Origin: a virus
Virus record (IMG/VR): IMGVR_UViG_3300045988_132430
Coordinates: 1 to 63,469 of that record
Direction: 5' to 3' (one strand)
DNA: 63,469 bases
This document shows, one piece after another, positions 1 through 62,036 of this stretch. The translations under genes were made by a program, and so were the position numbers. A model generated the notes under the pieces. The model did no database searches. It saw nothing but the letters and a program-made list of their open reading frames with translations, and was not told where the DNA came from. The stretch's first letter is position 1; the number at the start of each line of letters is the position of its first letter.

Positions 1-49
1 TTGTCGGGGCGACGGGATTCGAACCCACGACCCCCTGCTCCCAAAGCAG
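1..49 (-). repeat. attL: duplicated 3' 49 nt of tRNA-Pro(UGG); not followed by the rest of a tRNA
   Basis: Exact copy of 63421-63469. The reverse complement shows anticodon arm CTGC/TTTGGGA/GCAG (anticodon UGG), T-loop GGTTCGAATCC, and acceptor CGCCCCG plus A. Confidence 0.9.
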
Positions 50-11400: not shown

Positions 11401-14400
11401 CTTTTTCGCTTGTTTTTTGGGTTGAGTAGATTTTTTTGTTGGTACGGGTGTTATAAATGGACCATTATATTGCGGTTGGGGCTTACTCCATGGGAGGTTA
11501 TTGTTAAAAGGGAATCTACCAAATCCACCATTTGTATTAGTACCATTTCCTTTTGGTGGAGTATTTCTATCAAATATAGATTTAATCCTTACATACCATT
11601 GTGTACCAGATAGTTTTGCAAGCAAATTTGAAAGCGTACTTACTTTATTCCTTGCTATGTCTGCTTCACTGGAATCTACTTTAGGCTTCGCTTTTTTCTT
11701 GTCTAAATTATCTGAAGCATTTGACGCTTTATCATGTTCTTCTGTTGCTTTTTCTGCATCAGAAGAATCCACTTTAGGCTTTGCTTCTTTTTCTCCGAGT
11801 TCAGATACACTTGAAGATGCTTCGTTGTAACTCTTTATCAAGTCTTCAACTGACATCTTTGTAATATCATTATTCGCTTCTTGCCTTGCAGCAGTTCTGT
11901 CACTATCTTCTTGAACTTTCTTTGCATATTGCGCTTGTGCTGCCATTAACACCGCAATATTATTCAATCCAGATTTAGCATAGTCAGCAAACCCAGTTTT
12001 TAGGTAAGTAATATCAACTCCCATGTTACTCATTTGTCCTTTAAACGATGAGTACATTTGCGATAATAGTTGATTTTGCTCATTTACATTACCATTAGCT
12101 TCTTTCCATTTGGAAGCGTACGATGTTATTATTGATGAAGCTACAACAGAAGCCTGCTCTGACATATTTGAGAACTTTTTCCACTGTTCACCAACTTCAA
12201 TTAACGCTTCTTTCATTTCAGTTCCTGCTGAAAATTTAGCATGAAGCGCATCTTTATCTATCACATCATAACTGCTTGAAAAAGATTTCTGTAATTCTTT
12301 TTTTAAATCGTCTGCTTCTTTTTCAATGCTCTTGTTATAGCTTTCAAGTGCGTTTGCATTTATCCTTGCTTGTCCTTCTTGTTGAATAAGGTTTATTAGC
12401 TCATTTCTCAACCGATTTACTTGAGATAATTTGTCTTTTTCTTCGTCTATCTGAATACCATATTCATTGTATATACCGCATAGTTCTTCTATACTATCTT
12501 TGTATACTTTTGAATTTTTATCAACAGAATTGACGACTGCAAGCAAAGTGTTTGCATTCGCTTGCGTTTTTACTGCTTCTTCTCCGAATTTCTTTACTTC
12601 TTCTGTGGCTTCTTCTGTACTATCCGAGAAAGCAGAGAATATGCCTATACCGATAGAAATAGCTGTAATAGCCATTCCTATCGGATTTGATGCGAAAGCA
12701 GCTTTAAGTCCGTTAAATGCAGTCGTTAACTGCCCAGTTGCCCAAGTAAGAGCCTTCGTTGCTAACGAGTTCGCAGACTTTGATGCTGTGTCTATATTTT
12801 GTTGAACAATTTGAGCCTTTTTGGATGTTGAACTTAAATTCGTTGCTGCCGTATTTTTCGCGATGGCTGCTGCTTGTACATTAGTTGCAGCTGTTTCTTT
12901 TGTTTTAGACGCAGTTGATAGATTTTCTGCAGCTGTTTCTTTCTGTTTTATAGCTGCGGCTAATTCTGCTTCTCCTGCTGCGAAGGCTTCTGCGTCACCT
13001 TCGTTGAATGCAACCGCGATTTTTTCTTTAATAGCGTCTATTTGCTCGTTTGTTGCGTCAACGACATTCTTTGCATCTTCTACTCCAGTTGATGCTGAAT
13101 TAAAAGACATTTGTGCTTCTTCCCATGCTTTATTAGCAGAATCGAAAGCGTCTTGTGCTGCTTGTATTTCTTCTTCGTGTAATGCTTTGAGTTGATTGCG
13201 TAGTTCTTGTATTTGATTCGCTTTGTCAAGGTCTATACTTCCACCTTTAACTTGTTGCCCGAGGTCATCGTCAAGAGCAGATATTCCATTCTTTTGTTGA
13301 ATGAGTGCAATTTGTTGTTCAAGATTCGCAATTTCTTGACTTGCTGCGGCATTATTAACGGCTGCGACTGCTGCTGTTGCTGCTTTATTCATTCCCCATG
13401 CTGCTGCAATACTGATTATAATAGAACCTATTTCTTTGTAATGGTCTACCATGTCAGCAGCGAGTTCTATAGCACCACCAATAGCACCTTCTGATTTTTC
13501 TCCAATCTCGTTAAACATCATATCGATATTATCTTCAAGATTGGCGAGTTGACCCGTTAACGTCTTACTTTGCGCATCCATAAGACCGCCAAATTTACCT
13601 CCCTCATTAGTTAAGTCTTCAATAGCTTTTTGAACTTCTGGAAACCCAACTTTACCTTCTGAAACGAGGTCTTTAACTTTGCTTTCAGACACCCCAAATT
13701 GCTTTGCAAGCTCTGCAATCATAGGTATACCACGACCAGTAAATTGCATAAGGTCTTGCGCATAGAGCCTTCCTTGGCTCATTGTTGTGCCATACAGATA
13801 AATTATATCATTTAGAGGGATTGATAACCCTGCAGCAATGTCACCCAATCTAACAAGAGTGTCGTTTACTTGATTTGCTTCTAAACCATAAGCTAATAAT
13901 TGCTTCGCGCCATTCGCAACCCCTTGTAAGTCAAAAGGAGTGGAAGCTGCTGTAGTCACCATCTGTTGCATGAGTGCAGTAGCTTTCTGTTCGCTTCCAA
14001 GCATTGTATTGAAAGCCATTTCAATTTGCTGGAATTGTCCTCTAATATTCGTTACATTAGAAGCAAATTCTTGAGCTGAAAAAGCAATACCGAAACTTGC
14101 TGCAGATTTCGCAAGAGAAGCAAACATTGCATCTGCTGATGCGCCAGCATCTTGCATCTTGTGTAACGTATTCACAAAATTTCCACCATCAGAACTTGCC
14201 TTCGCGTAGCTATTCCCAAGGTTCTTAATTTCTGTAGATGTTTTAGCTGCATTCGTAGCCTGCTTAGACATTCCTTCGTCAGATTTTGCAAAATTGGACA
14301 TAATAAGCGAAACATCTGACGATATGTTTTTTGCAGCGTTGTTTGCTTGCGTTTGCATATTCATCAATGCTTGAATAAAGTCATTTGCGCTTTTCTGAAT

Positions 14401-14454
14401 GTCGTTTGCATCAATCGTGGCTCTGATGCCTATTGCGCCATCAATATCTTCCAT
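8497..14454 (-). CDS. Tail tape measure protein
   Basis: 1985-aa ORF that is Ala/Gln/Lys/Glu-rich with extended coiled-coil character and a central Lys-rich low-complexity region containing a duplicated AKPKVDSS segment. The position is typical. Confidence 0.9.
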   Translation of the reverse strand: MEDIDGAIGIRATIDANDIQKSANDFIQALMNMQTQANNAAKNISSDVSLIMSNFAKSDEGMSKQATNAAKTSTEIKNLGNSYAKASSDGGNFVNTLHKMQDAGASADAMFASLAKSAASFGIAFSAQEFASNVTNIRGQFQQIEMAFNTMLGSEQKATALMQQMVTTAASTPFDLQGVANGAKQLLAYGLEANQVNDTLVRLGDIAAGLSIPLNDIIYLYGTTMSQGRLYAQDLMQFTGRGIPMIAELAKQFGVSESKVKDLVSEGKVGFPEVQKAIEDLTNEGGKFGGLMDAQSKTLTGQLANLEDNIDMMFNEIGEKSEGAIGGAIELAADMVDHYKEIGSIIISIAAAWGMNKAATAAVAAVNNAAASQEIANLEQQIALIQQKNGISALDDDLGQQVKGGSIDLDKANQIQELRNQLKALHEEEIQAAQDAFDSANKAWEEAQMSFNSASTGVEDAKNVVDATNEQIDAIKEKIAVAFNEGDAEAFAAGEAELAAAIKQKETAAENLSTASKTKETAATNVQAAAIAKNTAATNLSSTSKKAQIVQQNIDTASKSANSLATKALTWATGQLTTAFNGLKAAFASNPIGMAITAISIGIGIFSAFSDSTEEATEEVKKFGEEAVKTQANANTLLAVVNSVDKNSKVYKDSIEELCGIYNEYGIQIDEEKDKLSQVNRLRNELINLIQQEGQARINANALESYNKSIEKEADDLKKELQKSFSSSYDVIDKDALHAKFSAGTEMKEALIEVGEQWKKFSNMSEQASVVASSIITSYASKWKEANGNVNEQNQLLSQMYSSFKGQMSNMGVDITYLKTGFADYAKSGLNNIAVLMAAQAQYAKKVQEDSDRTAARQEANNDITKMSVEDLIKSYNEASSSVSELGEKEAKPKVDSSDAEKATEEHDKASNASDNLDKKKAKPKVDSSEADIARNKVSTLSNLLAKLSGTQWYVRIKSIFDRNTPPKGNGTNTNGGFGRFPFNNNLPWSKPQPQYNGPFITPVPTKKSTQPKKQAKKKQTIKTNKHSQKDYLNQIEEKYTDQINNAHSNDAIDNIVKDLKAKVNSADDRTELRKMLVRVKAKAIKKQKKLNKSAGNETGGGKKSGKKGTTRTKSAAEINSDRISIQKDAKEKEANEIAKMQQEITDDSIKYMDESLKKEIKEIDNNKTKEEKALEDWLNAIIKSRKSVSEKLWKAGNHKKGETWLNTKDGKKTDAQWREDVLSDSKISAVYNKRNKQIVDNSSKDKATAIKEHFAEYDNLSDKEKQIKKLRSDIQFLEQELQKTTNETSKNEIDKLRQNAQAQLDWVSQSKDAWNEYYQKYGTFLEKRAALEEKFLHDTQGLDKNSPEYKSYEKEYEKNSKALEFEEIKKQLNWEDVFGDLSRLGKSALADLQKQLETLIQNDKNLSVESIKTINEAINKVRAEQAKKGSLIGNMFSSFRDLKSKKNAADKANEQVKNVAGGSIWKRYKEAENSSDTEKKAEIRNEQVYDPVSKKLITFGELLERAAKATKDYTEAEKTANETTKSVGSGFKTLSTMGKDVSGMLEKFGVSMPDGLTQVFDGFGSIGSAFEGFDLTKIGSFLDVGNYVHAITGVFGGVADVFSGFVSLFGHGSGEKAYKQELAHYEKLSGIWSDLIDKKKEYIDMSFGNEAKKAIAEVEALYKAEEKSIKNVTRTFLSKRSFNAHSQAYRANEAINNAGGFNKWSRLAGVNISRIEDLYSKNYTYDQLVKLKGADNGEFWASLGTEMQDYLDKLIECKKGTEDFQQEALEKLTGVKFDDMYSNFMSALTDMSKSADDWVSDFKDKIRSAIIENMMGEKVKSWMKDYTERYQAAMKAGNGTISEAQKQQFIDEAKEMSNAFYEERKQITENVGLGKSSTESSKSGGYATASEESIEELSGRALATNEALYSIRNQQLIDAATLVSINDGLQVIVTIENKRNAYYDESIEIQRTSVSHLAAIEKNTNELYTMNAKLTKIERNTRNM

Positions 14455-14463
14455 ATCGTTTAT

Positions 14464-14679
14464 TTACATTAGAGAAGCAAAGAAGCTATTACCATTGTCA
14501 TTCTTAGCGTAGCTCTTGCGCTTTGGTTTTACTTGATTTGTGTTATTATTGCTTGGTTGCTCATCTTCATTATCTTCATCTAAAGGCTTGATTGAAGGGA
14601 TTGCTGCATTCAGCAAGAGCAAATTGAGATAGCTGCGTTTAAAAACAACCTCATCGTAGCTCATGCGGAAATACTTCAT
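14464..14679 (-). CDS. T segment of the tail assembly chaperone GT (now separated from G by the nested element)
   Basis: 71-aa ORF directly upstream of TMP. Its frame stays open upstream to the element junction at 14741. See the findings. Confidence 0.55.
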   Translation of the reverse strand: MKYFRMSYDEVVFKRSYLNLLLLNAAIPSIKPLDEDNEDEQPSNNNTNQVKPKRKSYAKNDNGNSFFASLM

Positions 14680-14741
14680 TACTCCTCCGATGAACCCCCA
14701 TGGACTTGTGCTGCGCGAGTATTCGTCGTCGTCTGTTTTGC

Positions 14742-14754
14742 ACCGCGCAGGAAA
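14742..14754. repeat. Left copy of the 13-bp att core of the nested element
   Basis: ACCGCGCAGGAAA, identical to 23119-23131. Confidence 0.8.
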
Positions 14755-14921
14755 TAAATATGTATTTTGTTTTGTTTCTGTATCAGTTAGTTATGTTTCA
14801 ATTTGCTTCTACTTGCACAACATTTGCACAACTTATTCCGCGTTGTTTTTCGTTTTAAGCGTGTTTTATTCGTTTTGTGGGTACTTGTAAGCCTCAACCG
14901 CTAAAACTCGCCTAAATCGTT

Positions 14922-15227
14922 TTATTTCGCTTTTATGGTCTTAAGCATTCCCTTTGCTTCGCATATCTCGCCCCATAGCCATGCGCCATTGGTTTGTATA
15001 TATGTAAGTAGTTCGGTAATGCTTTGCAATGCTTTGTAAAGCGTTTCTTTATCGCCTTGCGGTACTTCTGACTTGCCAACTATGTACGCAAGTGAAACAA
15101 GTGTACAAATGTCTTTTTGTCGGTTTATTACTAAAATATCTTCGCAGTTATCAAGGTTTTCGCAAAGTTCCTTGATGTCTTCCTTTGATGGTGTTTCTTT
15201 TGTTTGTTGGTTTGTTGTTGTATTCAT
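14922..15227 (-). CDS. Hypothetical protein (nested element)
   Basis: 101-aa ORF, last gene of a three-gene leftward operon. Confidence 0.55.
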   Translation of the reverse strand: MNTTTNQQTKETPSKEDIKELCENLDNCEDILVINRQKDICTLVSLAYIVGKSEVPQGDKETLYKALQSITELLTYIQTNGAWLWGEICEAKGMLKTIKAK

Positions 15228-15231
15228 TGTC

Positions 15232-15471
15232 TTATTTGTTTTTATTGTTGTTGTCTGTTTGAATTGTTGAGGCTTGCAAGTGCCAAACCTTGTAACGCGT
15301 TTTGTTGCCCTTGCGCCACTCGCTTTTTATTAAATATCCCTTTGCTCTTAGGTAAGAAATATTTTTGTGAGGGTCTGCCACGTTGGCAAGTTTAACAAGG
15401 TCTATAGTACCATAATAGCCCCCACCTTGCAAGACTTTTAAAACCCTCGTGTTGCCGTTAGTTGCTTTCAT
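15232..15471 (-). CDS. Hypothetical small protein, possibly winged-helix
   Basis: 79-aa basic ORF (YLRAKGYLIKSEWRKGNKTRYKVW) that overlaps the upstream ORF by 14 nt. Confidence 0.45.
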   Translation of the reverse strand: MKATNGNTRVLKVLQGGGYYGTIDLVKLANVADPHKNISYLRAKGYLIKSEWRKGNKTRYKVWHLQASTIQTDNNNKNK

Positions 15472-15841
15472 TGGCTTGTATTTCGTTGGTAATATATTGG
15501 AGTGCCTTTTTTGTGTTGTCTGTTACTCGCTTCGCATATTGTAAAAACGTTTGTATTGGGCACTTTGCGCTATCCATAAAGGCAAAGCAAAAAACATTGT
15601 CGCTACAAAGTGAATGTGCCTTTTGTATGTTTGCTTTATGTCCTTTGTTCGTGTTCGCTTGCCTTAATGCGTGCAAAATTCGTGTGGCTTCTGTGTTGTG
15701 CTCTTGTGCTTTGTGCATGTCGCGCAAGAAGTTGAAAAGGTGCTTTTGTGGTTCTGCCATTAGTGAAAGCACGTTTGCACTCTCTTGTAGGTGCTTTTGC
15801 AGCCTTGCAAGTGTTTCGTTTGTGGTTTGTGTTACTATCAT
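15458..15841 (-). CDS. Hypothetical protein (nested element)
   Basis: 127-aa helical ORF preceded by the AAGCCTCAGC/GTTGAGGCTC hairpin at 15861-15890. Confidence 0.55.
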   Translation of the reverse strand: MIVTQTTNETLARLQKHLQESANVLSLMAEPQKHLFNFLRDMHKAQEHNTEATRILHALRQANTNKGHKANIQKAHSLCSDNVFCFAFMDSAKCPIQTFLQYAKRVTDNTKKALQYITNEIQANESN

Positions 15842-16091
15842 TTCTTTTGTGGTTTGTGGTAAGCCTCAGCCGTGCAAGGTGTTGAGGCTCGCCAAAGTTA
15901 TTGTATGTATGTTTTTATCTGTTTTGTTTCGTTTTGCGGTGCAAATATAACACTAAAACAAAACCAAACAAAACAAAAGTACTTTTTTCTTGTTATTATG
16001 TTGCATTTCTTCTTGTTTTGCTCTTTTGTTATTTATATTCTGTTTGTTCTTGTTTGTTATTATATTACTTGCAAATCTCCCTTTTGCTCAC

Positions 16092-16099
16092 TACCTTTG
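16092..16099 (+). promoter_or_regulatory. -7 box TACCTTTG for the first XRE regulator
   Basis: CTACCTTTGCAAT lies 25 nt upstream of the ATG at 16124. Confidence 0.45.
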
Positions 16100-16123
16100 C
16101 AATATCACTATAATAAAACAAAC

Positions 16124-16393
16124 ATGGATATAAAAGGCACAATCAAAAAACACGGCTTTACACTTGAAAGGGTAGCTAATGAGTTGGGAGTATCTAAAGG
16201 CTCTTTTTCGACCGCAACAAAAGGCAATCCCACTATAAACACTTTGCGCAAAATTGCAAACGTGTTGGGGTGTTCTGTTACTGAATTTTTCGAAGACGAA
16301 ACGAAAGAACAAAGTAGTACTTTTGTTTGTCCTCGTTGTGGTGCTCCCTTGCATATCAGCGTAAAGGAGGAAAAGCACGAAAGCAAAGAGTAA
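16124..16393 (+). CDS. XRE-family HTH regulator with a C-terminal zinc-ribbon-like CxxC
   Basis: MDIKGTIKKHGFTLERVANELGVSKGSFS... with CPRCG near the C-terminus. The tracked ORF (15872-) extends through AT-rich promoter DNA, so the internal ATG was chosen. Confidence 0.7.
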   Translation: MDIKGTIKKHGFTLERVANELGVSKGSFSTATKGNPTINTLRKIANVLGCSVTEFFEDETKEQSSTFVCPRCGAPLHISVKEEKHESKE

Positions 16394-16443
16394 CTTTGTG
16401 CCCCCACTTGTTAACCTTGTGGGGGTTCTGCTGCTTTACTGCC

Positions 16444-16683
16444 TTACCATACATAAAAGGTAACCTTTAAGCCTCTACGCAATTTACAAATAACTTTATC
16501 CGCCTTGTACATTGCCTTTTTGGCACGTGTTACCAACTTGTTAAACAAGCCAATACCTACCAACTTTACAAGACCGCTAACACCTACCAAAGTATTTAAT
16601 TTCTTGCCATCAGCATTTTTGCCGTAAACCTTAATTTTAAAAAGGTCGTTAACTTGTTTCTTTGTATATTGCATTTGTGCCAT
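16444..16683 (-). CDS. Hypothetical small basic protein between the two XRE genes
   Basis: 79-aa ORF with no recognised motif. Confidence 0.4.
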   Translation of the reverse strand: MAQMQYTKKQVNDLFKIKVYGKNADGKKLNTLVGVSGLVKLVGIGLFNKLVTRAKKAMYKADKVICKLRRGLKVTFYVW

Positions 16684-16833
16684 GTCGAAAAGGTTTTAGA
16701 ATTATCTTTTTATGTTTGTTTTCGTCTGCAAATATACATAGCACGATAATACAAACCAAATAAAAACAGAATAAAATATACTTTTCATGTTGCTTTTCTT
16801 GCTTAAATACTCTTTTTGTGTTGTTTTTGTGCG

Positions 16834-16841
16834 TATCTTTG
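16834..16841 (+). promoter_or_regulatory. -7 box TATCTTTG for the second XRE regulator
   Basis: GCGTATCTTTGCAAAG lies 30 nt upstream of the ATG at 16871. Confidence 0.45.
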
Positions 16842-16870
16842 CAAAGTAAACAAATAAACATTCTAAGTAT

Positions 16871-17155
16871 ATGGATATAAGATTAAAAGAACTTTGCAAG
16901 CAAAAAGGCATAACACAAAAAGAACTTGCAAATACTTTGGGAGTTACTGAAATAACGCTTACACGCGTAAATTCGGGTAATTGTTCCCTTTCACTATTAG
17001 AACGTATTGCAACTGCCTTGAATGTTCCAATACAAGAACTATTTAACCCACCATCAGAAAACAAAATCACGCTTATTTGCCCACACTGCAAGGGGGTTGT
17101 AAATGTTTCGCTTTCGGTTCATGGAGAGCAAAGCGAAGAAACAAATAAAGAATGA
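16871..17155 (+). CDS. XRE-family HTH regulator with C-terminal CxxC (paralog of 16124-16393)
   Basis: MDIRLKELCKQKGITQKELANTLGVTEITLTRVNSG... with CPHCKG. The architecture matches the first copy. Confidence 0.7.
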   Translation: MDIRLKELCKQKGITQKELANTLGVTEITLTRVNSGNCSLSLLERIATALNVPIQELFNPPSENKITLICPHCKGVVNVSLSVHGEQSEETNKE

Positions 17156-17197
17156 TTTTTTTGTATGTGGTCTGTAGCCTCAACAAATTAAAAGTAC

Positions 17198-17300
17198 TAC
17201 CTTTGCACTCGTTAAGTACTCCGTTGTTTTGACTTAAAAAAGTTGTTTTGTATTTTGCACAAGTCGTTCTAATTGGTTCGGCTTGTGCAAATTGTTTTTT
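17198..17300 (+). ncRNA. Candidate small RNA unit (promoter box plus about 85 nt plus a strong terminator), or simply the terminator of the XRE gene
   Basis: TACCTTTG at 17198-17205. A 10-bp stem TTTGCACAAG/CTTGTGCAAA (17254-17291) is followed by TTGTTTTTT. Confidence 0.3.
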
Positions 17301-17388
17301 CCTCCTTGTTCCAACTGCACACTAAAAAAACGCTGCAAACCATCAAAAAACGGCTTACAGCGTCCAAACTATTAAAAATGAAAGATAT

Positions 17389-17598
17389 TTAGTTACTAAA
17401 TTCTATAGAAAAGGGTTTTATTTCTTCTTTGCACCTCCTTACAAGCAAATGAGCATACCAATTATGAAATTTATTGTACCTTGTTATATATTCCCTTGCT
17501 TTGCGCTCGCTTGTAAACATTGCACTTAGTTTGTCGGCTTCGCCCTTGGGGGTGCTTACCTTTGCGAGGACAAAGTAAACATTTACACACTTGCTCAT
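17389..17598 (-). CDS. Hypothetical protein (nested element)
   Basis: 69-aa ORF with a 4-nt overlap with the upstream ORF. Confidence 0.5.
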   Translation of the reverse strand: MSKCVNVYFVLAKVSTPKGEADKLSAMFTSERKAREYITRYNKFHNWYAHLLVRRCKEEIKPFSIEFSN

Positions 17599-17924
17599 TC
17601 CAAAAGGATTTTTTTTTCTTCCTCTGTCAAATTATCTATGATTTCTTTTTCTTCTTTGGTCGTTACTACAGAGATTTTTAAATCTTCTTCCCCATTCTTG
17701 CAAAGTTTTTCTGTTTCTTCTTCTGTCAAATTATCTATGATTTCTTTTTCTTCTTTGGTCGTTACTACAAAGATGTTTAAATCTTCTTCCATATTCTTGA
17801 TAAAAGATTTGTTTATCATCTTTATTTTTCCGTTTATGAATTGAAAAACGCGCGAACATGTTTTTTTTGGTTTTTCTCCTTTTGCTACTTGTAGAATGAT
17901 TTTTATATTTGCGTCCTTGCTCAT
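17595..17924 (-). CDS. Hypothetical acidic protein with a 33-aa tandem duplication
   Basis: The sequence EDL(N/K)I(F/S)VVTTKEEKEIIDNLTEEE occurs twice, reflecting a 99-bp period (17624 and 17723). Confidence 0.55.
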   Translation of the reverse strand: MSKDANIKIILQVAKGEKPKKTCSRVFQFINGKIKMINKSFIKNMEEDLNIFVVTTKEEKEIIDNLTEEETEKLCKNGEEDLKISVVTTKEEKEIIDNLTEEEKKILLE

Positions 17925-18274
17925 TGTTCACTTTCTGTTTGTTGTTTTTCTTCTTGTAGTTGCATCACCTTTAAAGCAATTTTTTGTACTGCTTCCTCGG
18001 GTGCTTCTTTTAGCAACTTTTCAAGTGCTGCGTATTCGGTTTCTATTTTCGCCTGTGCCGTTATGCTTGCTTGCTTGGGTATTGCATAGCCTAACAAGTT
18101 TATATAAGATTTTACGCGCTCGCTTGGCTCGAGTTCGTTTAGGTCGCTCATTACTTGCGCTTGCATACCTTGTAAAAGCATTTTAACCCATTCCGCTAAA
18201 TCAGCATTCCTTTTATTTCGTGTTCCCTTGGGTCTGCCCTTGGGGTTTCCTACTTCGCCTTTTCTAAATACCAT
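17921..18274 (-). CDS. DUF5681-like protein (GNPxGRPKG motif)
   Basis: N-terminus MVFRKGEVGNPKGRPKGTRNKRN. A promoter box (TATCTTTG on the minus strand) lies at about 18303-18312. Confidence 0.45.
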   Translation of the reverse strand: MVFRKGEVGNPKGRPKGTRNKRNADLAEWVKMLLQGMQAQVMSDLNELEPSERVKSYINLLGYAIPKQASITAQAKIETEYAALEKLLKEAPEEAVQKIALKVMQLQEEKQQTESEQ

Positions 18275-18322
18275 AATTGTGTTATATTTGTTTATTATAC
18301 TTGCAAAGATAGTGCTTTATTG

Positions 18323-19051
18323 TTATATATTACTTCTTTGTTTCTCTTGAAATTGTTTGAACTCATCAGACAAAGAAAAATTTTGCTTTGTTTGGTGTAG
18401 TGGCTGCTTTGTTCTCTCGTCTTCTTTCAGCCAATAAAGACAAAAGTTTTGTATTTCCTTTAGTGTGGCTTTTGTGCAAAATAAGTCCATCACGTATTGG
18501 CAAAATCTTGGAGCGTTTTTGGCTGCTGCTTCTGTATGGTATTGTATTTTTCCAAATGGTGTTGAGGCTTCAAAGATTTTGCTTTCTTGTGTCGTTGGGG
18601 TGCTGCTGCTTGTAGTGCTATTTTTATTACATTGTGTAGTACTATTTTTATTACATTGTGTAGTACTATTTTTATTACCTTGTGTTGTACTATTTTTATT
18701 ACCTTGTGTTGTACTATTTTTATTACCTTGTGTTGTACTAAATTTATTACCTTGTGTTGTACTAAATTTATTACTAATAAGGAATGTATAAGTACTTGAT
18801 TTGCTTTTTGTTGTGGAGTATTTTATAATACCTTTTTTGCTTAGTGTTTCGCGTATTTTCAAAAGGTGCGTTTTACAAGTTGTTCCATACCTTTTGCAAA
18901 CCTCTTCAAGAGTGGCTACAAATTGCCCTTTCTCGTTCGCTCTCTCTTGGTATAAACCAATTAGAGCAAATAAAAGTCTTGTTTCGCTCGAAGTGTACGC
19001 GCTTGCTTTGTCGTTCTTTAGAATGGTTTTTAAAATCTTTGTTATATCCAT
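18323..19051 (-). CDS. Winged-helix Rep/initiator-like protein with an internal STTQGNK tandem repeat
   Basis: N-terminal wHTH-like region (ATLEEVCKRYGTTCKTHLLKIRETLSKKGII), then seven 8-aa repeats. An iteron array lies nearby. Confidence 0.45.
   Translation of the reverse strand: MDITKILKTILKNDKASAYTSSETRLLFALIGLYQERANEKGQFVATLEEVCKRYGTTCKTHLLKIRETLSKKGIIKYSTTKSKSSTYTFLISNKFSTTQGNKFSTTQGNKNSTTQGNKNSTTQGNKNSTTQCNKNSTTQCNKNSTTSSSTPTTQESKIFEASTPFGKIQYHTEAAAKNAPRFCQYVMDLFCTKATLKEIQNFCLYWLKEDERTKQPLHQTKQNFSLSDEFKQFQEKQRSNI
18613..18780 (-). repeat. 24-bp x 7 in-frame tandem repeat (encodes STTQ(G/C)NK(F/N))
   Basis: Contiguous units TAGTACTATTTTTATTAC(A/C)TTGTG with a few substitutions. Confidence 0.9.
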
Positions 19052-19456
19052 TGTTTTGCCTTTTAAGTTTGTTGTTATTCGTTTTGTGGGCGTTTTGCCG
19101 TGCTTGTGGGTACTTGTTAAGCCTCAGCCGTAAAACTCGCTAAAATCGCAAATTTGCCAAAAATAACGGCTTTTGTTGTTGAGGCTTCGGAATGGTCTTG
19201 CACTCTACAAAGTTTGTACTAACTTATAGTGCAAGGCTATTCCGTTTGTGTTGTAAACTCTCCCACAATCGGATAAATAGGAGAGAGCAAAGCGACCGAC
19301 CCCCATAAACCCCCTATAAATTTATTTCTTGTTTCTTGTTGAGGCTTTAAATAGCTTAAATTTAGTGCTTTGTTTTCGCTCTAAGGGCGTTTTGTGCGTT
19401 TTGTGGTATCTTGTAAGCCTCAGCACAAAATAACGGCTTAAAACGCAAATTTTAAG
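19052..19456. other. 405-bp structured non-coding region (repeat units plus long hairpins)
   Basis: Contains two AAGCCTCAGC and two GTTGAGGCTT copies, a 16-bp stem 19189-19204/19228-19243 with two G-U pairs, and a 6-bp stem 19258-19263/19280-19285. Confidence 0.6.
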
Positions 19457-19888
19457 CTATTGCCTAAAAAGTAGCCCCATATCTACAGAAAAGGGGGTAA
19501 TACAAAATTCTACCCTTGGGCGTTCCTTGTCTGTTCGCTTTTCCGCATTTATCTTGCAGCAAAAGCAATCATTTGTAATTGCTCCTACATATTGCAAACA
19601 ATCTAAAAGCGTTTTTAATGCGTTGTCTAAATCGTTTTTTGTAGTTGCAAAATACACTACTACATTCAAGGCAAAAGGTGTGTTTATCTGTTTACCCTTG
19701 TATATTTTGCATTGCTTTATAAAACTTTGTTCATACCTCCTTAGTTTGTCGGTTTTGATTATTCGCCTTTTGCCGTCCTTGTCGGGCACTGCTTGGTAGT
19801 TGTTAGCCTTGCCAATTACTTGCCCCCAAATTATCTCTGTTTCCATCGTGAAGCGTTTTTGTGTTGTTGTTGTTGAAATTCTTCGCAC
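19457..19888 (-). CDS. rusA: RusA-like Holliday junction resolvase
   Basis: 143 aa. The pattern ...NDLDNALKTLLDCLQYVGAITNDCFC... and the length fit the RusA family. Confidence 0.5.
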   Translation of the reverse strand: MRRISTTTTQKRFTMETEIIWGQVIGKANNYQAVPDKDGKRRIIKTDKLRRYEQSFIKQCKIYKGKQINTPFALNVVVYFATTKNDLDNALKTLLDCLQYVGAITNDCFCCKINAEKRTDKERPRVEFCITPFSVDMGLLFRQ

Positions 19889-19997
19889 GTGCGAACACCA
19901 ACAACAGCAACAAAAATAACGAAGTATGAGTTATTTTTTTCTGTTGTTGGGTTATATATCATATTTCATATATCATATTTCATAAAGGTTTGCTTTC

Positions 19998-20072
19998 GGT
20001 TTCCCTTTGGTTTCCCTTTGGTTTTCCTTTGGTTTCCCTTTGGTTTCCCTTTGGTTTTCCTTTGGTTTTTTT
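19998..20072. repeat. Iteron-like array: 11-bp GGTTT(C/T)CCTTT x 6 plus a partial unit (33-bp super-repeat x 2)
   Basis: Read directly from the sequence. It is preceded by an AT-rich tandem TATATCATATTTCA x 2 (about 19955-19985). Confidence 0.85.
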
Positions 20073-20121
20073 ATTAGTTGTTATTTGTTGATATTCAAGC
20101 AAAAAAAGTTGTTTTTTTATT

Positions 20122-20679
20122 TTACCTATACCGCCCTTTTTTCCACTCGTTTTTTCTGTTTTGTAGTTGTATTCTTTCCCAATCTAAAAAGTGTGCCTTT
20201 ATATCGTTTTCGCTTGTATGTCGTTTCCCTTTAAATTGGCATTCGTTGAAAAAGTTATCAAAATCTTCATCGCTCCTATAGCATGCCATAGTATCACCAC
20301 CAAAGGGGGAACAATCAAGCCAAGACGATAGAAAATTTTCATCAGTTTTCAGCCGTTCAAAAATAGCCTTTTCTTCATCGTGCGAAAGGTATTTTTTTTC
20401 CTCTGTTTTCGCTTCTTCCTTTTCTTTCGGTCTACCTCCTTTTTTGCCGTTTGCTATACATTTTTCGTATCGTGTTTTACCCTCATCAAGCATATTTTTT
20501 AAAGCGTGAAAGACAATATTTTTAATTACGTCTTTTTGGTCTGGTGTTTTGCCTTCTCTTACGTAATAGTAAAGCATTTTTAAACATTGCCATGCTTCAG
20601 CCTCATTGGTTGTTGCAACGCTGTCTAACACGTTTAAAACTTGTTCGGATATTATTAAATTAGCCTTTTTATCTTCCAT
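20122..20679 (-). CDS. Replication-organizer-like protein (DUF6291-like N-terminus, GGRPK motif)
   Basis: 185 aa. The N-terminal region resembles that of the outer phage protein 53486-54421 (both carry a KGGRP(K/R)K motif). Confidence 0.4.
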   Translation of the reverse strand: MEDKKANLIISEQVLNVLDSVATTNEAEAWQCLKMLYYYVREGKTPDQKDVIKNIVFHALKNMLDEGKTRYEKCIANGKKGGRPKEKEEAKTEEKKYLSHDEEKAIFERLKTDENFLSSWLDCSPFGGDTMACYRSDEDFDNFFNECQFKGKRHTSENDIKAHFLDWERIQLQNRKNEWKKGRYR

Positions 20680-20681
20680 GC

Positions 20682-20975
20682 TTAAACGTTGCTTTTGGTG
20701 TTACTACTCGTTTGGTGCTTTCTTCTGTTTGCTCTTCTTCGGTCGCTCCTCCGTTTCTCGCTCTTTTGCTTTTCGATGATAGGGCGCAAAACCTTTGTGT
20801 AATATTCGGCTTGCTCCTCGTCTAAATCTCCTTTTTGGGGTTCTACTCCCTTAAATCCATAATCGCAAAAGGCTTTCAAAAGTTGGAATGCTCTTGCACC
20901 TCCGAAAAGGTTCATTTCTACCGCCAAATAAGGGGGTACTTTTATTTTGTCAAGTAATACGTTATCTTTTTCCAT
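20682..20975 (-). CDS. Hypothetical protein with an Arg-rich C-terminus
   Basis: 97-aa ORF with the tail KSEKRRSDRRRANRRKHQ. Confidence 0.5.
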   Translation of the reverse strand: MEKDNVLLDKIKVPPYLAVEMNLFGGARAFQLLKAFCDYGFKGVEPQKGDLDEEQAEYYTKVLRPIIEKQKSEKRRSDRRRANRRKHQTSSNTKSNV

Positions 20976-21180
20976 TGTTTTTTTGTTAGTGGTTTGTTGG
21001 TTTGAGCCTCAACACTTCAAAAAGTGCTTTATTTGCCTATTTGCTTTTAGTTTTAGCGTGCTTTGTGTGCTCGGTGGTAGTTTGTACACCTTACACACAA
21101 AAACGCTCTTAGAACAAATAAAAAGCCCTTTTAGGTGTTGAGGCTATAAAGTTGGTAAGTTATTTGCCATTGTTGAGGCT

Positions 21181-21486
21181 TCAAAGTGCGTTTTGTCTTT
21201 CGTTCAAAAGTGCATTTATATCGCTTTGTTTGTAGTAGTTCTTGTTACCTAATTTTATAGGCTTTAAGTACCCACGCTTAGCCCATACCCAAAGAGAAGA
21301 TTTTTGCACGTGAAAAATAGCCCTTACTTCCTCAGTTGATAGCAAATTTTCTTTTGTTGTACTCTTGTTTTCGTTCGCTTTAAGTTGTTCCATAAATTCA
21401 GCCATCATAGAACTAAACACACTTTGCAAATCTTCTTTTGTTATCATAAAGATTTGGCTTGCGTTTGTAATTGTTTTAGCATCCAT
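21181..21486 (-). CDS. Excisionase-like HTH (MerR/HTH_17-type) protein
   Basis: LSTEEVRAIFHVQKSSLWVWAKRGYLKPIKLGNKNYYKQSDINALL. It lies immediately downstream of the integrase. A -7 box TATATTTG sits at 21543-21550 on the minus strand. Confidence 0.6.
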   Translation of the reverse strand: MDAKTITNASQIFMITKEDLQSVFSSMMAEFMEQLKANENKSTTKENLLSTEEVRAIFHVQKSSLWVWAKRGYLKPIKLGNKNYYKQSDINALLNERQNAL

Positions 21487-21611
21487 ATTTGTAAATATTT
21501 TTCTATTTGTTTTACTTCGTTTATTTTGTTTCGTTTTCGTTGCAAATATACTGATTTATATTGCTTTTCTATATCTTTTGTATGTTTTTTTATTGTAAAT
21601 ATATATCTTAT

Positions 21612-22943
21612 TTATAATAGCCTTATAACTTCGCTTTTTATCTCATCGTCTATTGCCCTATATCGTGCAAAAGCGGTGCTATTTTGTGCGTGCCCACTCA
21701 TTGAGGCAATTAAATTTGGGTCTTTTACTTGTTTGTATAATAAGCCAATAAATGTGCGCCTTGCCATGTGTGTGCTAACTACTTCGCAAAGTTGCTTTTG
21801 TTCCTCCTTTCGTGTTATTGGGTTTAATACTTGTACTTGTCGCGTGAAGCCACAAAGGGCAAAAAGTTTCTTTAGCTTTCTGTTAATCCTTTCAGTGCTG
21901 CCACAATTCGGTAAAAGGTTTGCACCCTCTTTGTACTTCTCAATGATACGCAAAGCAACTGAATGTAACGGAATGCGTAAAACGCGCCCACGCTTTGAAA
22001 TGGTCTTTTGTGGTATGTATTCCAAATAGTTGCCTATTATGTTATGTTTGGTAAGCCTCAACAAATCACTAATACGGCAACCGCAAAAACACTGAAATAT
22101 AAATAAATCGCGTATCTTCGCAAGTTCGGGGAAATCTTGCAAATCGTATTCCGTTAGCGTGTCGCGTTCCTCCCTTGTAAGGTAGTAGGGAGTGCCGTAT
22201 ATCTCGGGACTTATCTTTATACTCGCCATAGGGTTTTTGTTTATTAGTCCTTTTCTTTCGGCAAAGTTTAAAACGGCTCTAAATTTTTTCATGTACCCTA
22301 TTATGGTGTTTATACTCCTTTGTTTTGGTGGTCTGCCTTTCCTTGTAAGGTCTTCAAATGGTTTGCTTTCGTATATTTCGTGGTGCTTTGCTACTTCTTC
22401 TTGTTCGTGCTTCAAAAAGTCTTCAAAGTTGGCAATATCATTTGCCGTAAGTGTGCGAATATCCGCAAAGTGTGTTGTTTTGCCTTGTGCTTGCTCGTTC
22501 ATTTTTAAGTGCTTAAAAATAGTTCTAAGTGCTTTGTAATACTCTTTGCTCCTTTTGCTCATTTCGTTTGCTTTTACGTATTGTTTTATAAGTTCGCAAA
22601 TGTCGTATATATTACCGCCATCCGTGCAAAGTTCACAAAATACTTCACCATTCATTGCCCTTGTAAGGTCGTGCGAGTTTTTTATAAAATCTTTGTTTTG
22701 TTCGTACACCTCCAAAAGTCGGTCTTTTGTATTTTGTATTTCGTTGTTTGTCGTTCGTCTGTATGTGTTATTGCAAATCTTTCTTGTACTTATTTCTCCC
22801 TTTTTAGAGTCCCAAAGAATAACATTTACAGAAATAGTACTTTTATAAAATAGTTGTACGTTTCGCCCATCAGACAAACGGAAACGAACAAAAGCGGTAT
22901 CTTTGCCCTTGGTCGCTCTTATTAGTGCTTTAATTGTTGCCAT
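21612..22943 (-). CDS. int: Tyrosine recombinase/integrase of the nested element
   Basis: 443 aa. The N-terminal arm-binding-like domain reads MATIKALIRATKGKDTAFVRFRL. The C-terminus carries ARRTF...GHAQNSTAFARY (R, HxxR and Y catalytic pattern). Confidence 0.85.
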   Translation of the reverse strand: MATIKALIRATKGKDTAFVRFRLSDGRNVQLFYKSTISVNVILWDSKKGEISTRKICNNTYRRTTNNEIQNTKDRLLEVYEQNKDFIKNSHDLTRAMNGEVFCELCTDGGNIYDICELIKQYVKANEMSKRSKEYYKALRTIFKHLKMNEQAQGKTTHFADIRTLTANDIANFEDFLKHEQEEVAKHHEIYESKPFEDLTRKGRPPKQRSINTIIGYMKKFRAVLNFAERKGLINKNPMASIKISPEIYGTPYYLTREERDTLTEYDLQDFPELAKIRDLFIFQCFCGCRISDLLRLTKHNIIGNYLEYIPQKTISKRGRVLRIPLHSVALRIIEKYKEGANLLPNCGSTERINRKLKKLFALCGFTRQVQVLNPITRKEEQKQLCEVVSTHMARRTFIGLLYKQVKDPNLIASMSGHAQNSTAFARYRAIDDEIKSEVIRLL

Positions 22944-23115
22944 ATTAGTATAACTTTTTGCCGTTGTGCAAGTTCTTTATTTTTGCACAACACAAACAGA
23001 AACAAAGCAAAAAACGAAAGAAACAAGTTAAATATACCTTTCTTTGTTTTTGCGCTGAAAGTGTTATAAATCATTCCTTTTGCTTTGCTTTGTTCTGTTT
23101 TAGTTTAACTTTGTT

Positions 23116-23493
23116 CTAACCGCGCAGGAAAGTCATAGATTGAAAAAAAAAGGATGCATTGAAACTTTGTGCGCAGAACGTAATAACTTCGTTATAGCGC
23201 GTCATTGTGGTTTTCTTAGCAATGTACCATCCGAATAAAAATCTTGCAATAGAGCTGCGGAAAATGGCTTTTATGACAACCTTTTGCAATACTCTAATAT
23301 CCTTGTGCATAGATAACATCTTTTCGATTCCATTAAATGTGCCCTGAATATCCAGTTGCTCACAAGTGTTTACAAGTTCTCCAATCTCCCAAATTTGGGC
23401 GAGCGTTAGAGGTTTTATGTGTACGGGTAACAAGCCAAACCTAATCCAAGTACCCTTTTCACTAAATGTTTCTTCTGTGCTTATCTTCGTCAT
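23116..23493 (-). CDS. Tail assembly chaperone G, C-terminally truncated by the nested element
   Basis: 125-aa ORF between the major tail protein and (after excision) TMP. It ends at a TAG supplied by the element and contains a T9 slippery run. Confidence 0.6.
   Translation of the reverse strand: MTKISTEETFSEKGTWIRFGLLPVHIKPLTLAQIWEIGELVNTCEQLDIQGTFNGIEKMLSMHKDIRVLQKVVIKAIFRSSIARFLFGWYIAKKTTMTRYNEVITFCAQSFNASFFFQSMTFLRG
23119..23131. repeat. Right copy of the 13-bp att core of the nested element
   Basis: ACCGCGCAGGAAA, identical to 14742-14754. Confidence 0.8.
23143..23151 (-). promoter_or_regulatory. Putative -1 programmed frameshift slippery run (T9 on the coding strand)
   Basis: The coding strand reads GCA TCC TTT TTT TTT CAA. 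The -1 frame is open from here across the reconstructed junction into ORF 14464-14679. Confidence 0.5.
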
Positions 23494-25780: not shown

Positions 25781-26890
25781 TTAATTATCTTCTGTTACTT
25801 CACCCGTTTTGTCTGTTTCAAGAATGTAGTAGTTATTCTTGCCAGTAAACACAGGGTGCGCCCACATCTCATAATCAATAAAACGTCCCTTCTCATTACG
25901 CCACATACCAACTTGGTTGTTGTCGTATGTTGAGTAAGTCTTGTTGGGTAGGGGGTCAACCGATTCAAGAGTGTCAGCAACTTTCAGCACCGCAACTGTA
26001 TCAGCGCACTGGAATACAACGCGGTCATCCTTCGTCATGTTCGTTGATGTACCATCAGCAAGAATGCAGTAACGCTCCTTCTCAATGGTGATAGTCGGTA
26101 AAAGAATTGATTCGAGATACTGGTTTACTTCGTTATAAGATACACGTGCAGCTGATACATCAACCTTGCCAAGTTTCAATTTGAACACATCACGCAACTG
26201 CTTTGATTTGCACATCTTGCGGAAGGTACGCACACTCATACGCATCTTCAAGACAGTCTTACCGATTGAACCAAGGTAGTCCACAATCTCTTGAATATCG
26301 TCAAGAGGTGTAGAATTTTCGTTACCCCATGCAGCAACTTTGGCATGGAACTTCTTGATACCAAGTTTGTAGGTGTAAGATACACCAGACTTCGTGTTGT
26401 TACCGCTGTTTACAGTCTGTGTGCCGTTGAATAAGCCCTCATAGTAGAGCATATCAATACGCTTATGAGGAGCGATTACAGCCTTCTCGAACGGGTCAAA
26501 GAGGAACTTAACCAACTTAGCATACTCTACGTTACGCTGCTCCTGCGAGAACGAATACTGCTTATCTCGGTATCGTCTTTCGAGGAAATAGTATTGGTCA
26601 AGTCTATCGTTATCCATCTGCCACTCATCGGCAATACGGCTCAGTGAACCAATCAACTGCTTTGCAGTTGGCATCTGATGAGTAGGTTTTTCACCATTCT
26701 TGTCAATAACTGAACCAACCATTGCTGCTGCATATTCTGCAATATAAGCGTTATAAACCTTAGATGCGCAATATTCGGGTGAAGGCATCTCGCTCTTCCA
26801 CTCGGCAACATAGGTTGAGTTCTTCATCTGCTCTTGAATGAAAGCATCAAAACGCTTCGGCTTTTCAAGCTCTTTGATTAAAGAATCCAT
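25781..26890 (-). CDS. Major capsid protein (lambda gpE-like size and position)
   Basis: 369 aa, preceded by scaffold-like and decoration-like genes. Confidence 0.7.
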   Translation of the reverse strand: MDSLIKELEKPKRFDAFIQEQMKNSTYVAEWKSEMPSPEYCASKVYNAYIAEYAAAMVGSVIDKNGEKPTHQMPTAKQLIGSLSRIADEWQMDNDRLDQYYFLERRYRDKQYSFSQEQRNVEYAKLVKFLFDPFEKAVIAPHKRIDMLYYEGLFNGTQTVNSGNNTKSGVSYTYKLGIKKFHAKVAAWGNENSTPLDDIQEIVDYLGSIGKTVLKMRMSVRTFRKMCKSKQLRDVFKLKLGKVDVSAARVSYNEVNQYLESILLPTITIEKERYCILADGTSTNMTKDDRVVFQCADTVAVLKVADTLESVDPLPNKTYSTYDNNQVGMWRNEKGRFIDYEMWAHPVFTGKNNYYILETDKTGEVTEDN

Positions 26891-28186: not shown

Positions 28187-28546
28187 TTAGAAATTCGCAT
28201 TTTTCTTAGCTTTTTCCTTGTTTTGATATCTTATTAGCAGTTTCTTGACCTTGTTTGCTGAATAGGCATTTGAATTGTTTATCCTATATATGTGCATTCC
28301 CAACCTACGCAAGCACGCACTTCTGTTGCTGTCAAGTCGCTTTTGGTTATCCGTAAAATGGTATTTCCCATCTACTTCAATAGCAAGTTTGAGCGTAGGT
28401 ATGTATATATCTATATAAAAGCACTTTCTTGCTGTTCTAACTGGGTACTGTCTTATAAATTGCACATTCAATGCGCTTAGTATTCTACACACAGACTTTT
28501 CAGCTGAGGTCGATTTGTTTAGTAGTTCATTTCTGTAGTTTGCCAT
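28187..28546 (-). CDS. DUF559 / Vsr-like endonuclease-fold protein
   Basis: SAEKSVCRILSALNVQFIRQYPV...YIDIYIPTLKLAIEVDGKYHF fits the DUF559 pattern. Confidence 0.55.
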   Translation of the reverse strand: MANYRNELLNKSTSAEKSVCRILSALNVQFIRQYPVRTARKCFYIDIYIPTLKLAIEVDGKYHFTDNQKRLDSNRSACLRRLGMHIYRINNSNAYSANKVKKLLIRYQNKEKAKKNANF

Positions 28547-31795: not shown

Positions 31796-31859
31796 AAGGT
31801 GATATGATTCCTAATGTCGATATATTGAGCGACGCTGGACATATCACCTTCATTTTTTT
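31796..31859. terminator. Bidirectional terminator between the plus-strand island and the convergent MuF gene
   Basis: 11-bp stem AAGGTGATATG/CATATCACCTT (31796-31806 and 31840-31850) with an inner GTCG/CGAC stem. It is followed by CATTTTTTT on the plus strand and TTTT on the minus strand. Confidence 0.6.
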
Positions 31860-61992: not shown

Positions 61993-62036
61993 AAGGGATT
62001 ATGGGAAAATCAAAAGTCCCATAATCCCTTTTCTTA
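61993..62036. terminator. Bidirectional terminator between the moron block and the integrase
   Basis: 13-bp stem AAGGGATTATGGG/CCCATAATCCCTT followed by TTTCTT. Confidence 0.65.

Follow-up and report, generated by a model that had tools for sequence, protein, structure and literature searches.

Can a mobile element use a morphogenesis gene of a prophage as its integration site and give the gene back intact when it leaves? The question is raised by a 63,469-nucleotide stretch of viral DNA, the IMG/VR record IMGVR_UViG_3300045988_132430 (the window), in which an 8.4-kb block of genes with its own integrase lies inside a putative tail assembly chaperone gene. A preliminary description of the window had proposed that this block is a satellite-like element nested in a prophage. 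Phage satellites are well known in Proteobacteria and Firmicutes, and Bacteroidota are among the dominant phyla of the human gut. From the window itself and from related contigs we conclude that the block is almost certainly an active integrative element embedded in the chaperone gene.

Boundaries of the element and its excision in silico

The block is bracketed by ACCGCGCAGGAAA, an exact 13-bp direct repeat which occurs in the window in two copies only, at 14742-14754 and 23119-23131; among dinucleotide-preserving shuffles of the window 0/100 contained any match to it. Counted with one copy of this core the element measures 8,377 bp, and the composite of 63,420 bp consists of 55,043 bp of phage and 8,377 bp of element. 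Most genes of the element lie on the same strand as the late operon of the phage, and the start codon of the integrase gene, at 22943, is 175 nt away from the right repeat. When we deleted positions 14755-23131 in silico, the open reading frame (ORF) 23116-23493 on the minus strand was joined in frame to 20 further codons (...TFLRG-AKQTTTNTRAAQVHGGSSEE*). The product of the rebuilt gene has 145 amino acids (aa), and its stop codon overlaps as TAATG with the ATG of a 71-aa ORF (14464-14679) upstream of the tape measure gene. As long as the element stays inserted, it provides the stop codon of the chaperone gene (GGT TAG). The repeat, the distance of the integrase gene from it, the ORF restored by excision and the stop codon from the element had been described before, together with the insertion between the major tail and the tape measure genes, and each was confirmed in our analysis.

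Empty sites and free circles

A search of IMG/VR with the protein fused in silico identified 13 related phages, 13/13 with an uninterrupted gene of 140-146 aa. One of them, L001, shares about 94% identity with the window on either flank. Where its two flank alignments meet, they have exactly the 13 bp of the core in common; L001 contains this core once, and its 145-aa chaperone gene is intact with 99% identity to the rebuilt gene. The empty site anticipated in the preliminary description thus exists with the exact core, and the ORF restored in silico has an intact natural counterpart. We reached it by way of the fused protein; the exact-string search of IMG/VR for the predicted empty site gave 0 matches because L001 differs at one flanking base.

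The exact junction strings also gave 0 matches in IMG/VR. A degenerate junction pattern, TTTCCTNNGNGGTTAGAAC, yielded 120 matches in a metagenome scan, none of them related to the window by blastn, and was discarded as too loose. The predicted circular junction itself was found in many independent assemblies. Contig L014, with an integrase 97% identical to that of the window, is circularly permuted: the distal gene is followed by the core and then by int, which represents the attP junction. Six contigs from different samples and with different start points were called closed circles on the basis of a terminal overlap equal to the assembler k-mer: L230 (8369 bp, overlap 119 bp), L231 (7528 bp, 141 bp), L232 and L233 (both 7453 bp, 55 bp), L234 (7428 bp, 30 bp) and L016 (9672 bp, 141 bp). 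The closed circles span 7.4-9.5 kb and were assembled independently in many gut metagenomes. L230-L234 belong to the element lineage of the window and have the arms predicted from it, and L016, from a lineage of 84% identity, shows its own variant of the circular junction. For each of two integrase variants, 7/7 contigs were element-sized. Scaffold L236, assembled from one sample, contains attR, attP and attL together, and contig L015 leads from phage sequence through attR and the whole element into the attP junction. Public samples in which both forms are present include ERZ28614241/SAMEA4765562, ERZ4567702 and ERZ27287174.

An assembly chimera, the possibility against which the preliminary description had asked to be checked, is excluded by the recurrence of the same junctions on several contigs from independent assemblies. 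The exact integrase of the window and the truncated chaperone gene co-occur on 4-5 contigs of up to 108 kb, and the junction of the window is reproduced in the independently assembled contig L021. Occupied sites are a minority: in the 90% chaperone cluster of the window the truncated form is present on 4 contigs, the full-length form on dozens. With attL, attR, attB and attP as well as closed circular forms observed, the element undergoes site-specific integration and precise excision.

The interrupted gene and its prophage

On its minus strand the window carries a single temperate tailed prophage, which is complete. Besides an integrase of its own (62034-63272), this prophage encodes RecT, an exonuclease, a replication initiator, the large terminase, portal and head morphogenesis proteins, the major capsid protein (25781-26890) and a tape measure protein of 1985 aa. 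Since the window ends in 49-bp repeats derived from a tRNA gene, with the phage integrase gene adjoining, it represents the whole prophage bounded by its own attachment sites. The repeat contains the T-arm GGTTCGAATCC, and the anticodon loop suggests that the gene is probably tRNA-Pro (UGG). The arrangement is a nest of three levels, with the tRNA gene occupied by the prophage and the prophage by the element.

Between the major tail and tape measure genes the insertion cuts the gene that we call G close to its 3' end. A T9 run, a candidate -1 slippery site, precedes the core, and from this run the -1 frame is open through the 71-aa ORF. Across 12 phages mean identity is higher in the -1 frame (0.875) than in the 0 frame (0.804). 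The 71-aa ORF is therefore most likely the T part of a G/GT product made by -1 frameshifting, and it follows that the 13-bp repeat would lie in a doubly coding stretch. Xu, Hendrix and Duda reportedly described this conserved G/GT architecture for tail assembly chaperones in 2004; a gene pair at this position with a predicted -1 frameshift fusion points to such a chaperone. An alternative slippery site, GGGGGT near the end of G, was rejected, since this string is not conserved while the T9 run and the downstream -1 frame are. In one related phage, L241, the putative slippery run (at about 9790-9800) has T7 in place of T9, and the ORF is called directly in the -1 (T) frame; this may reflect a natural difference in run length or else an error in sequencing the slippery run.

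Attachment-site anatomy and core alleles

The att cores follow the common pattern TTTCCT-N6-GG. Three alleles were distinguished: AAGAGG, which is the common one, GCGCGG in the lineage of the window, and CGCAGG at the capsid site described below. A 9-mer, GTTGTGCAA, occurs in five exact copies in the window, 4/5 in the arms of the element, as a tandem pair on the tape measure side and as an inverted pair in front of int (Table 1). This layout is kept in L105, L236, L237, L238 and L240-L253, which include the most divergent members of the family.

AAGAGG and GCGCGG differ by three bases; the exchange is silent in the G frame and replaces K by A in the T frame. The two alleles are found in separate phage sublineages (the window and L001 versus L002; L010 and L012 versus L005-L009). 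Within each composite both junctions match the allele of the phage, GCGCGG in the window and L021, AAGAGG in L320, L102 and L236. The free circles found so far all have AAGAGG, L016 with a one-base variant. Such a pattern fits either selection, i.e. escape of the phage followed by pursuit by the element, or a passive imprint of recombination.

Relatives and target sites

Elements with related integrases occupy the same position in the chaperone gene (site 1) in L320 (integrase in the same 90% cluster), L015 (84% identical to that of the window), L102 (77%), L106 (59%) and L240, L241 and L253 (50%). All site-1 elements reside in phages related to the window prophage. L238 (60%) uses a second chaperone site: here site 1 is intact and the insertion is located about 55 bp further downstream, within the same G/GT overlap. 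In L104 (62%) the element lies inside the major capsid gene, which is split into parts of 151 aa and 218 aa with TTCTCGCAGGA as attL and TTCCTCGCAGGA as attR; a free form, L105, has an attP that matches this capsid site. The intact major capsid gene of the window contains the corresponding target unoccupied (Table 1), and two different embedded elements could in principle reside in this one phage. L017 (78%) was found in an intergenic region of a bacterial chromosome, flanked by the same TTTTCCTAAGAGG core and by genes matching Prevotellamassilia timonensis. This site seems to be a look-alike or off-target, because the integrase of L017 is 91% identical to that of a site-1 element.

In a neighbor-joining tree without support values the clade that contains the capsid and site-2 lineages has site-1 elements as its deepest branch. 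All embedded copies point in the direction of the phage late genes: int-xis and most other genes are co-oriented with the late operon in the window, L015, L021, L102, L104, L106, L238, L240, L241, L253 and L320. A 15-kb contig, L237 (ERZ15610075), has a 59%-identical integrase and the same GTTGTGCAA arm layout, is much GC-richer and contains two long low-complexity ORFs; it suggests that the family extends to other hosts.

Genes and repeats of the element

The coordinates of all features are listed in Table 1. The integrase has 1190 homologues, of which the closest are mostly located on element-sized contigs and those with a named organism all come from Bacteroidales; one at 39% identity bears the source label intN1. 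To the integrase of the phage itself the identity is 22% only. Among GTDB representative genomes integrases reached no more than 47% identity (<=47%), with no close copy in any species representative, and tblastn against 50,697 phage records matched no enterobacterial phage. Megablast with the region and sensitive blastn with the element found no match among deposited phages and plasmids, the best match at the protein level being 35%.

Table 1. Positions of the element, its attachment sites and genes, and of neighboring phage features in the window.
Feature	Position	Strand	Evidence or remark
att core, T/tape measure side	14742..14754	.	ACCGCGCAGGAAA, in gene orientation TTTCCTGCGCGGT; exact repeat and empty site of L001
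att core, chaperone 5' side	23119..23131	.	TAG stop from the element directly after the core
Element body	14755..23118	-	absent from L001 and L002; 93-95% identical to the free form L014
5' part of putative tail assembly chaperone gene (G)	23116..23493	-	cut at codon 125/145; between major tail and tape measure genes
T9 run (A9 on the + strand), candidate -1 slippery site	23143..23151	-	13 nt upstream of the core
3' remainder of chaperone locus	14464..14741	-	last 20 G codons (0 frame, to 14680) and probable T part (-1 frame, including the 71-aa ORF 14464-14679)
Tandem GTTGTGCAA arm motif pair	14813..14832	-	59-78 bp from the core
Inverted pair GTTGTGCAA-N11-TTGCACAAC	22963..22991	.	between core and int start codon; arm or operator site
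Tyrosine integrase, 443 aa, Bacteroidota type, N-terminal SAM-like domain	21612..22943	-	Pfam PF13102 (Phage_int_SAM_5) and PF00589 (Phage_integrase)
HTH_17 excisionase-like protein	21181..21486	-	Pfam PF12728 at 4.6e-10; PHROG excisionase families
97-aa protein, conserved in relatives	20682..20975	-	no family match (Pfam, PHROGs, PADLOC, NCBIfam)
DUF6291/DUF7833 protein	20122..20679	-	Pfam
Putative origin	19954..20068	.	AT-rich repeats 19954-19984 and 7.5 x 11-bp iteron GGTTTCCCTTT at 19987-20068
RusA-like Holliday junction resolvase	19457..19888	-	Pfam PF05866 at 4.4e-12; PHROG 140/34
242-aa protein with internal QGNKNSTT repeat	18323..19051	-	PHROG 186/270 at E about 1e-4
DUF5681-motif protein, 117 aa, all-helical	17921..18274	-	Pfam PF18932, residues 3-31
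XRE-type HTH regulator	16871..17155	+	Pfam HTH_26/HTH_3; opposite strand
Second XRE-type HTH regulator	16124..16393	+	Pfam HTH_26/HTH_3 on the enclosing ORF; start inferred from translation
Three small distal genes: 127 aa, 79 aa (weak wHTH), 101 aa	14922..15841	-	conserved
Dispersed intergenic motif	14847-14919, 15840-15872, 19076-19148, 19373-19445, 21044-21116, 22037-22063
Tape measure protein gene	8497..14454	-	PHROG 9959 at E = 7e-194
Unoccupied capsid-site target TTCTCGCAGGAG	26540..26551	-	inside the intact major capsid gene; by comparison with L104 attL/attR and L105 attP
Prophage att repeat	1..49; second copy 63421-63469	.	exact 49-bp terminal repeat; 3' half of a tRNA gene

The gene content agrees with the preliminary description in Pfam and PHROG searches and repeat analysis as regards the excisionase-like helix-turn-helix (HTH) protein, RusA, the iterons, the two XRE regulators and DUF5681. 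As described, no capsid, tail or lysis genes were matched in the element by Pfam and PHROG searches, and no terminase either. The 242-aa protein had been named winged helix-turn-helix (wHTH) Rep-like; behind this label we found only weak PHROG matches, which hint at a link to DnaD-like or replication proteins, and no PDB match. The HTH_17 gene comes after int in every relative and is a probable recombination directionality factor. The DUF6291/DUF7833 protein is a probable replication initiator or organizer, and the iteron array occupies the intergenic region between its gene and that of RusA. The order of the three small distal genes is kept in all relatives, and in circular forms they lie directly before attP and int. 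Comparison of the small proteins with PADLOC, NCBIfam and PDB sequences gave nothing useful. For the DUF5681 protein a fold search with the AlphaFold2 (AF2) model (predicted local distance difference test, pLDDT, 70) gave no significant match, and the idea that it mimics the small terminase of the phage was rejected, as it bears no similarity to the presumptive phage small terminase.

Several further observations concern individual regions. The DUF6291 protein and the N-terminal part of the phage replication initiator (53486-54421) both match PHROGs 15768/16304 and have a GGRP[KR] motif (GGRPK) in common, and are not alignable elsewhere; this hints at a common domain class rather than mimicry. 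Two tandem repeats run in frame through coding regions, one of 24 bp x 6.8 (QGNKNSTT units, 18611-18774) inside the 242-aa ORF and one of 99 bp x 2.2 (17601-17822) inside a 109-aa ORF, and the length of tandem-repeat coding regions differs between relatives (226-248 aa). At 16444-16861 a 138-aa gene of the free form L014 (97% related) is divided by a frameshift into two ORFs of 70 and 79 aa in the window, which may be either a real inactivating mutation or a homopolymer assembly error. A motif of up to about 70 nt, TTTTGTGG...TTGTAAGCCTCA[A/G]C, recurs between genes throughout the element together with its inverted partners GTTGAGGCTT; it may represent promoter, terminator or regulator sites. 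In the host prophage, a region of the head morphogenesis protein (31858-34215) matches a PHROG of Bxa ADP-ribosyltransferase, and a gene for a DUF559/PvuRts1I-like nuclease (28187-28546) lies just upstream of the head genes, a position kept in all related phages.

Proposed life cycle and alternatives

What does the element gain from this location? We consider it moderately probable that it follows the full life cycle of a helper-embedded satellite of gut Bacteroidales (Prevotellaceae), which could be outlined as follows. The tyrosine integrase, probably together with the HTH_17 protein, would recombine attP, with its core flanked by doubled GTTGTGCAA, and the matching phage site 13 nt downstream of the T9 run, where the G and G-T frames would overlap. 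In the integrated state G lacks its last 20 codons and the putative T part is moved 8.4 kb off, so that neither normal G nor any G-T fusion could be produced from the prophage and tail assembly would be blocked. The int-xis genes follow the truncated gene on the same strand after 175 nt, and between 23116 and 22943 no terminator-like hairpin was found on the late-gene strand; transcripts of the late genes should thus extend into int-xis and set off excision. With excision the chaperone gene is precisely rebuilt and the circle is freed, which may replicate from its own iteron origin with the help of the DUF6291 protein, the 242-aa protein and RusA. The circle would then spread along with the phage, by being packaged in phage particles or by inserting again into the genomes of progeny phages. 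We infer the essentiality of the interrupted gene, the read-through of int-xis, autonomous replication and the transfer route, the last being the weakest step of the scheme.

Several findings weigh against this life cycle. The chaperone label is derived from gene order and frameshift architecture only; the protein has no Pfam or PHROG match, and the AF2 model of the intact chaperone, with a low pLDDT of 60, found no Foldseek match at E <= 0.001. Element and phage have no pac- or cos-like DNA segment in common (best match 33 nt, E = 0.04), and no protein beyond generic HTH and integrase similarity. In Pfam, PHROG, NCBIfam and PADLOC searches the element showed no terminase, capsid, capsid-size or known satellite marker, and none of the markers of P4, PICI, cfPICI or PLE was present (small terminase, capsid, Psu/Sid/Delta, primase, PLE core genes). 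An Rfam scan revealed no immunity RNA, as no family reached the threshold. The L017 lineage sits stably in the bacterial chromosome (19 contigs), and the free circles are very common, which may indicate a plasmid-like life independent of the phage. Since neither a packaging-related gene nor a shared pac/cos segment was found, we use the term satellite-like tentatively.

Some of these findings would also fit an integrative, plasmid-like hitch-hiker, i.e. a small iteron plasmid of Prevotellaceae for which a phage gene is one of several attB sites and which moves from cell to cell only within the packaged composite, without any functions that exploit the helper. The iterons and replication-type proteins, the many closed circles with some lineages known only as circles, the use of a chromosomal site and the lack of any packaging signal or packaging gene found in the element are all compatible with this explanation, as is the occurrence of composite contigs among the viral contigs of IMG/VR. 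A plasmid of this kind would not be expected to use three sites, in two presumably essential late genes of a single group of phages, and invariably in the same orientation, which speaks for specialization on phages, and no partition or mobilization genes were found in the element. The composite is also 15% longer than the helper (63.4 versus 55.0 kb), which exceeds the roughly 10% tolerated by lambda (PMC10111431), and a particle carrying it would deliver a phage with a broken tail gene. We therefore regard the plasmid-like explanation as unlikely, though worth keeping in mind.

The choice of targets allows another explanation, in which the element locks prophages or acts against phages: by inactivating essential morphogenesis genes it would benefit the bacterium, and the phages would respond by recoding the core. 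The targets are presumably essential late genes at highly constrained, probably doubly coding positions, episomal copies would be on hand against incoming phage DNA, and a chromosomal copy exists in a Prevotellamassilia-like genome. The two core alleles, synonymous in the G frame, distributed over separate sublineages and matched between element and phage in each composite, could be read in the same way, as could L238, a phage with the GCGCGG allele in which the insertion is at a different site. However, passive imprinting by repeated rounds of integration and excision could explain the allele pattern equally well, no known defense gene was found in the element, and occupied sites are a small minority of the phage copies. 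The co-orientation and the placement of int-xis for read-through favor timely excision over a permanent block. A defensive role as such appears improbable to us. An arms race at the att core, in which the element disables phages through essential doubly coding late-gene sites, the phages recode AAGAGG to GCGCGG and the elements either match the new core or jump to other sites, is likewise a speculative scenario that we would not expect to hold. If it did, the resident episome would amount to a programmable, integrase-based defense against incoming phages of the same group, and the first satellite system described in Bacteroidota.

That the block is an assembly artefact with a coincidental 13-bp repeat, or simply a lysogeny and replication module of the phage, as its integrase, repressor-like HTH proteins and replication genes might suggest, can for practical purposes be dismissed, given that elsewhere in its genome the phage possesses an integrase, tRNA att repeats, RecT/exonuclease and a replication initiator, that close relatives lack the block with precisely one core copy left, and that the same junctions were obtained independently from different samples with different assemblers, with the circular junction observed as well.

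Comparison with known systems

The preliminary description had stated that an element of this kind was not known for phages of Bacteroidota. This holds for the literature we searched, in which no helper-embedded element or phage satellite is reported for Bacteroidota, and a large published survey of satellites nowhere mentions Bacteroidetes. The general principle, however, has already been published for Enterobacterales in the form of the helper-embedded phage-inducible chromosomal islands (HE-PICI; Tommasini, Mageeney & Williams 2023, PMC10111431). That study described 491 elements, without exception co-oriented, which occupy 14 sites in nine lambda-cognate late genes, along with off-target chromosomal copies; it surveyed only Proteobacteria and found members only in Enterobacterales (PMC10111431).

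Like HE-PICI, the elements described here are small (about 8-11 kb in both), bear an integrase and lie co-oriented within a prophage late gene. Insertion disrupts this target, attP has no replacement sequence, and excision restores the gene. Of the features that define the configuration of HE-PICI, late-gene location, co-orientation and a disrupted target with precise restoration are thus present in our family. In both, one integrase clade has switched repeatedly between late-gene sites, including the major capsid gene, look-alike chromosomal insertions occur occasionally, int is followed by a gene of the HTH_17/AlpA type, and there is a separate replication zone. Doubled arm motifs are present on both sides of the core as well and at similar distances, at 69/80 and 138/158 bp here and, in HE-PICI, 81 bp upstream and 132 bp downstream of the attP center (PMC10111431).

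Our family differs in that it belongs to Bacteroidota and its integrase has a SAM_5 N-terminal domain. By domain type, taxonomy of the homologues and published range it falls outside the enterobacterial HE-PICI/PICI/P4 integrase clade. Of the PICI gene zones only the HTH_17 protein at the AlpA position was recovered; searches of Pfam, PHROGs, NCBIfam and Rfam detected no Bro-N, primase/DUF5906, captured capsid or late genes and no C4/isrK-type RNAs. The arm motif is different, and no cos-like segment is in common with the helper. Here the elements insert mainly in the G/GT overlap within the tail chaperone gene, and free circles are abundant in metagenomes. For HE-PICI the order of events is known from induction, where the composite excises, then replicates, and the satellite excises late (PMC10111431), whereas our family is known from assembled sequences, which give a static picture with attP circles and with attL, attR and attP in one sample.

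Compared to classical satellites (P4, PICI/SaPI, cfPICI, PLE, PICMI), the element is similarly small, with an integrase, an excisionase-like regulator and its own replication module, lacks a full set of virion genes and is tied to a specific group of helper phages. Classical satellites, in contrast, integrate in the bacterial chromosome and act on the helper in trans, and they are defined by demonstrated helper-dependent packaging together with marker genes, while the element is recognized by its sequence and these markers were not found. Precise excision from an ORF with reconstitution of the gene is also performed by skin in sigK and SPbeta in spsM of Bacillus, phi10403S in comK of Listeria and SpyCIM1 in mutL of Streptococcus. 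As in these cases of regulated gene integrity, the integrated state acts as an off switch; those elements split cellular genes, however, and the switch serves the cell or the relationship of phage and host, whereas here the interrupted gene belongs to another mobile element, the prophage, and the switch presumably serves the inserted element.

The Bacteroides NBU/IntN1/IntDOT group resembles the family as integrative elements of Bacteroidales of about 10 kb with the same broad class of tyrosine integrase, a short core and a circular intermediate. NBUs differ in that they carry a relaxase/mobilization gene and oriT, use a site at the 3' end of tRNA-Leu and are moved by conjugative transposons; in our element no relaxase or primase domain was found, all ORFs other than the integrase have <=242 aa, and the targets are phage genes. 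A side observation concerns a 15.9-kb circular 'plasmid' of Bacteroides finegoldii (L239, NZ_OY725957.1), in which a 35%-identical integrase is followed by DUF6043, ORF6N (of the KilA-N/Bro-N network), HTH and DUF5906. This layout resembles the integration, Bro and replication zones of PICI, and the plasmid may be another unrecognized type of Bacteroides satellite.

Taken together, the helper-embedded strategy most likely arose independently in this family. Both families are co-oriented with the late genes that they target, in both a single integrase clade switches between sites, and both have doubled arm motifs; this convergence of the same hallmarks with an unrelated integrase and different genes suggests that the layout provides a real selective advantage. 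The known principle is thereby carried over to another phylum and into the human gut, in a family that has three target sites, abundant circles and a pattern of core alleles. Insertions of this kind can make intact prophages seem defective and can break metagenome assemblies at att sites. The family also provides a system in which to study how an inserted element times the assembly of phage tails and heads and how gut prophages are held in check, and, being compact at 8 kb with defined attP and attB and two natural core alleles, it lends itself to the question of how tyrosine integrases gain new targets.

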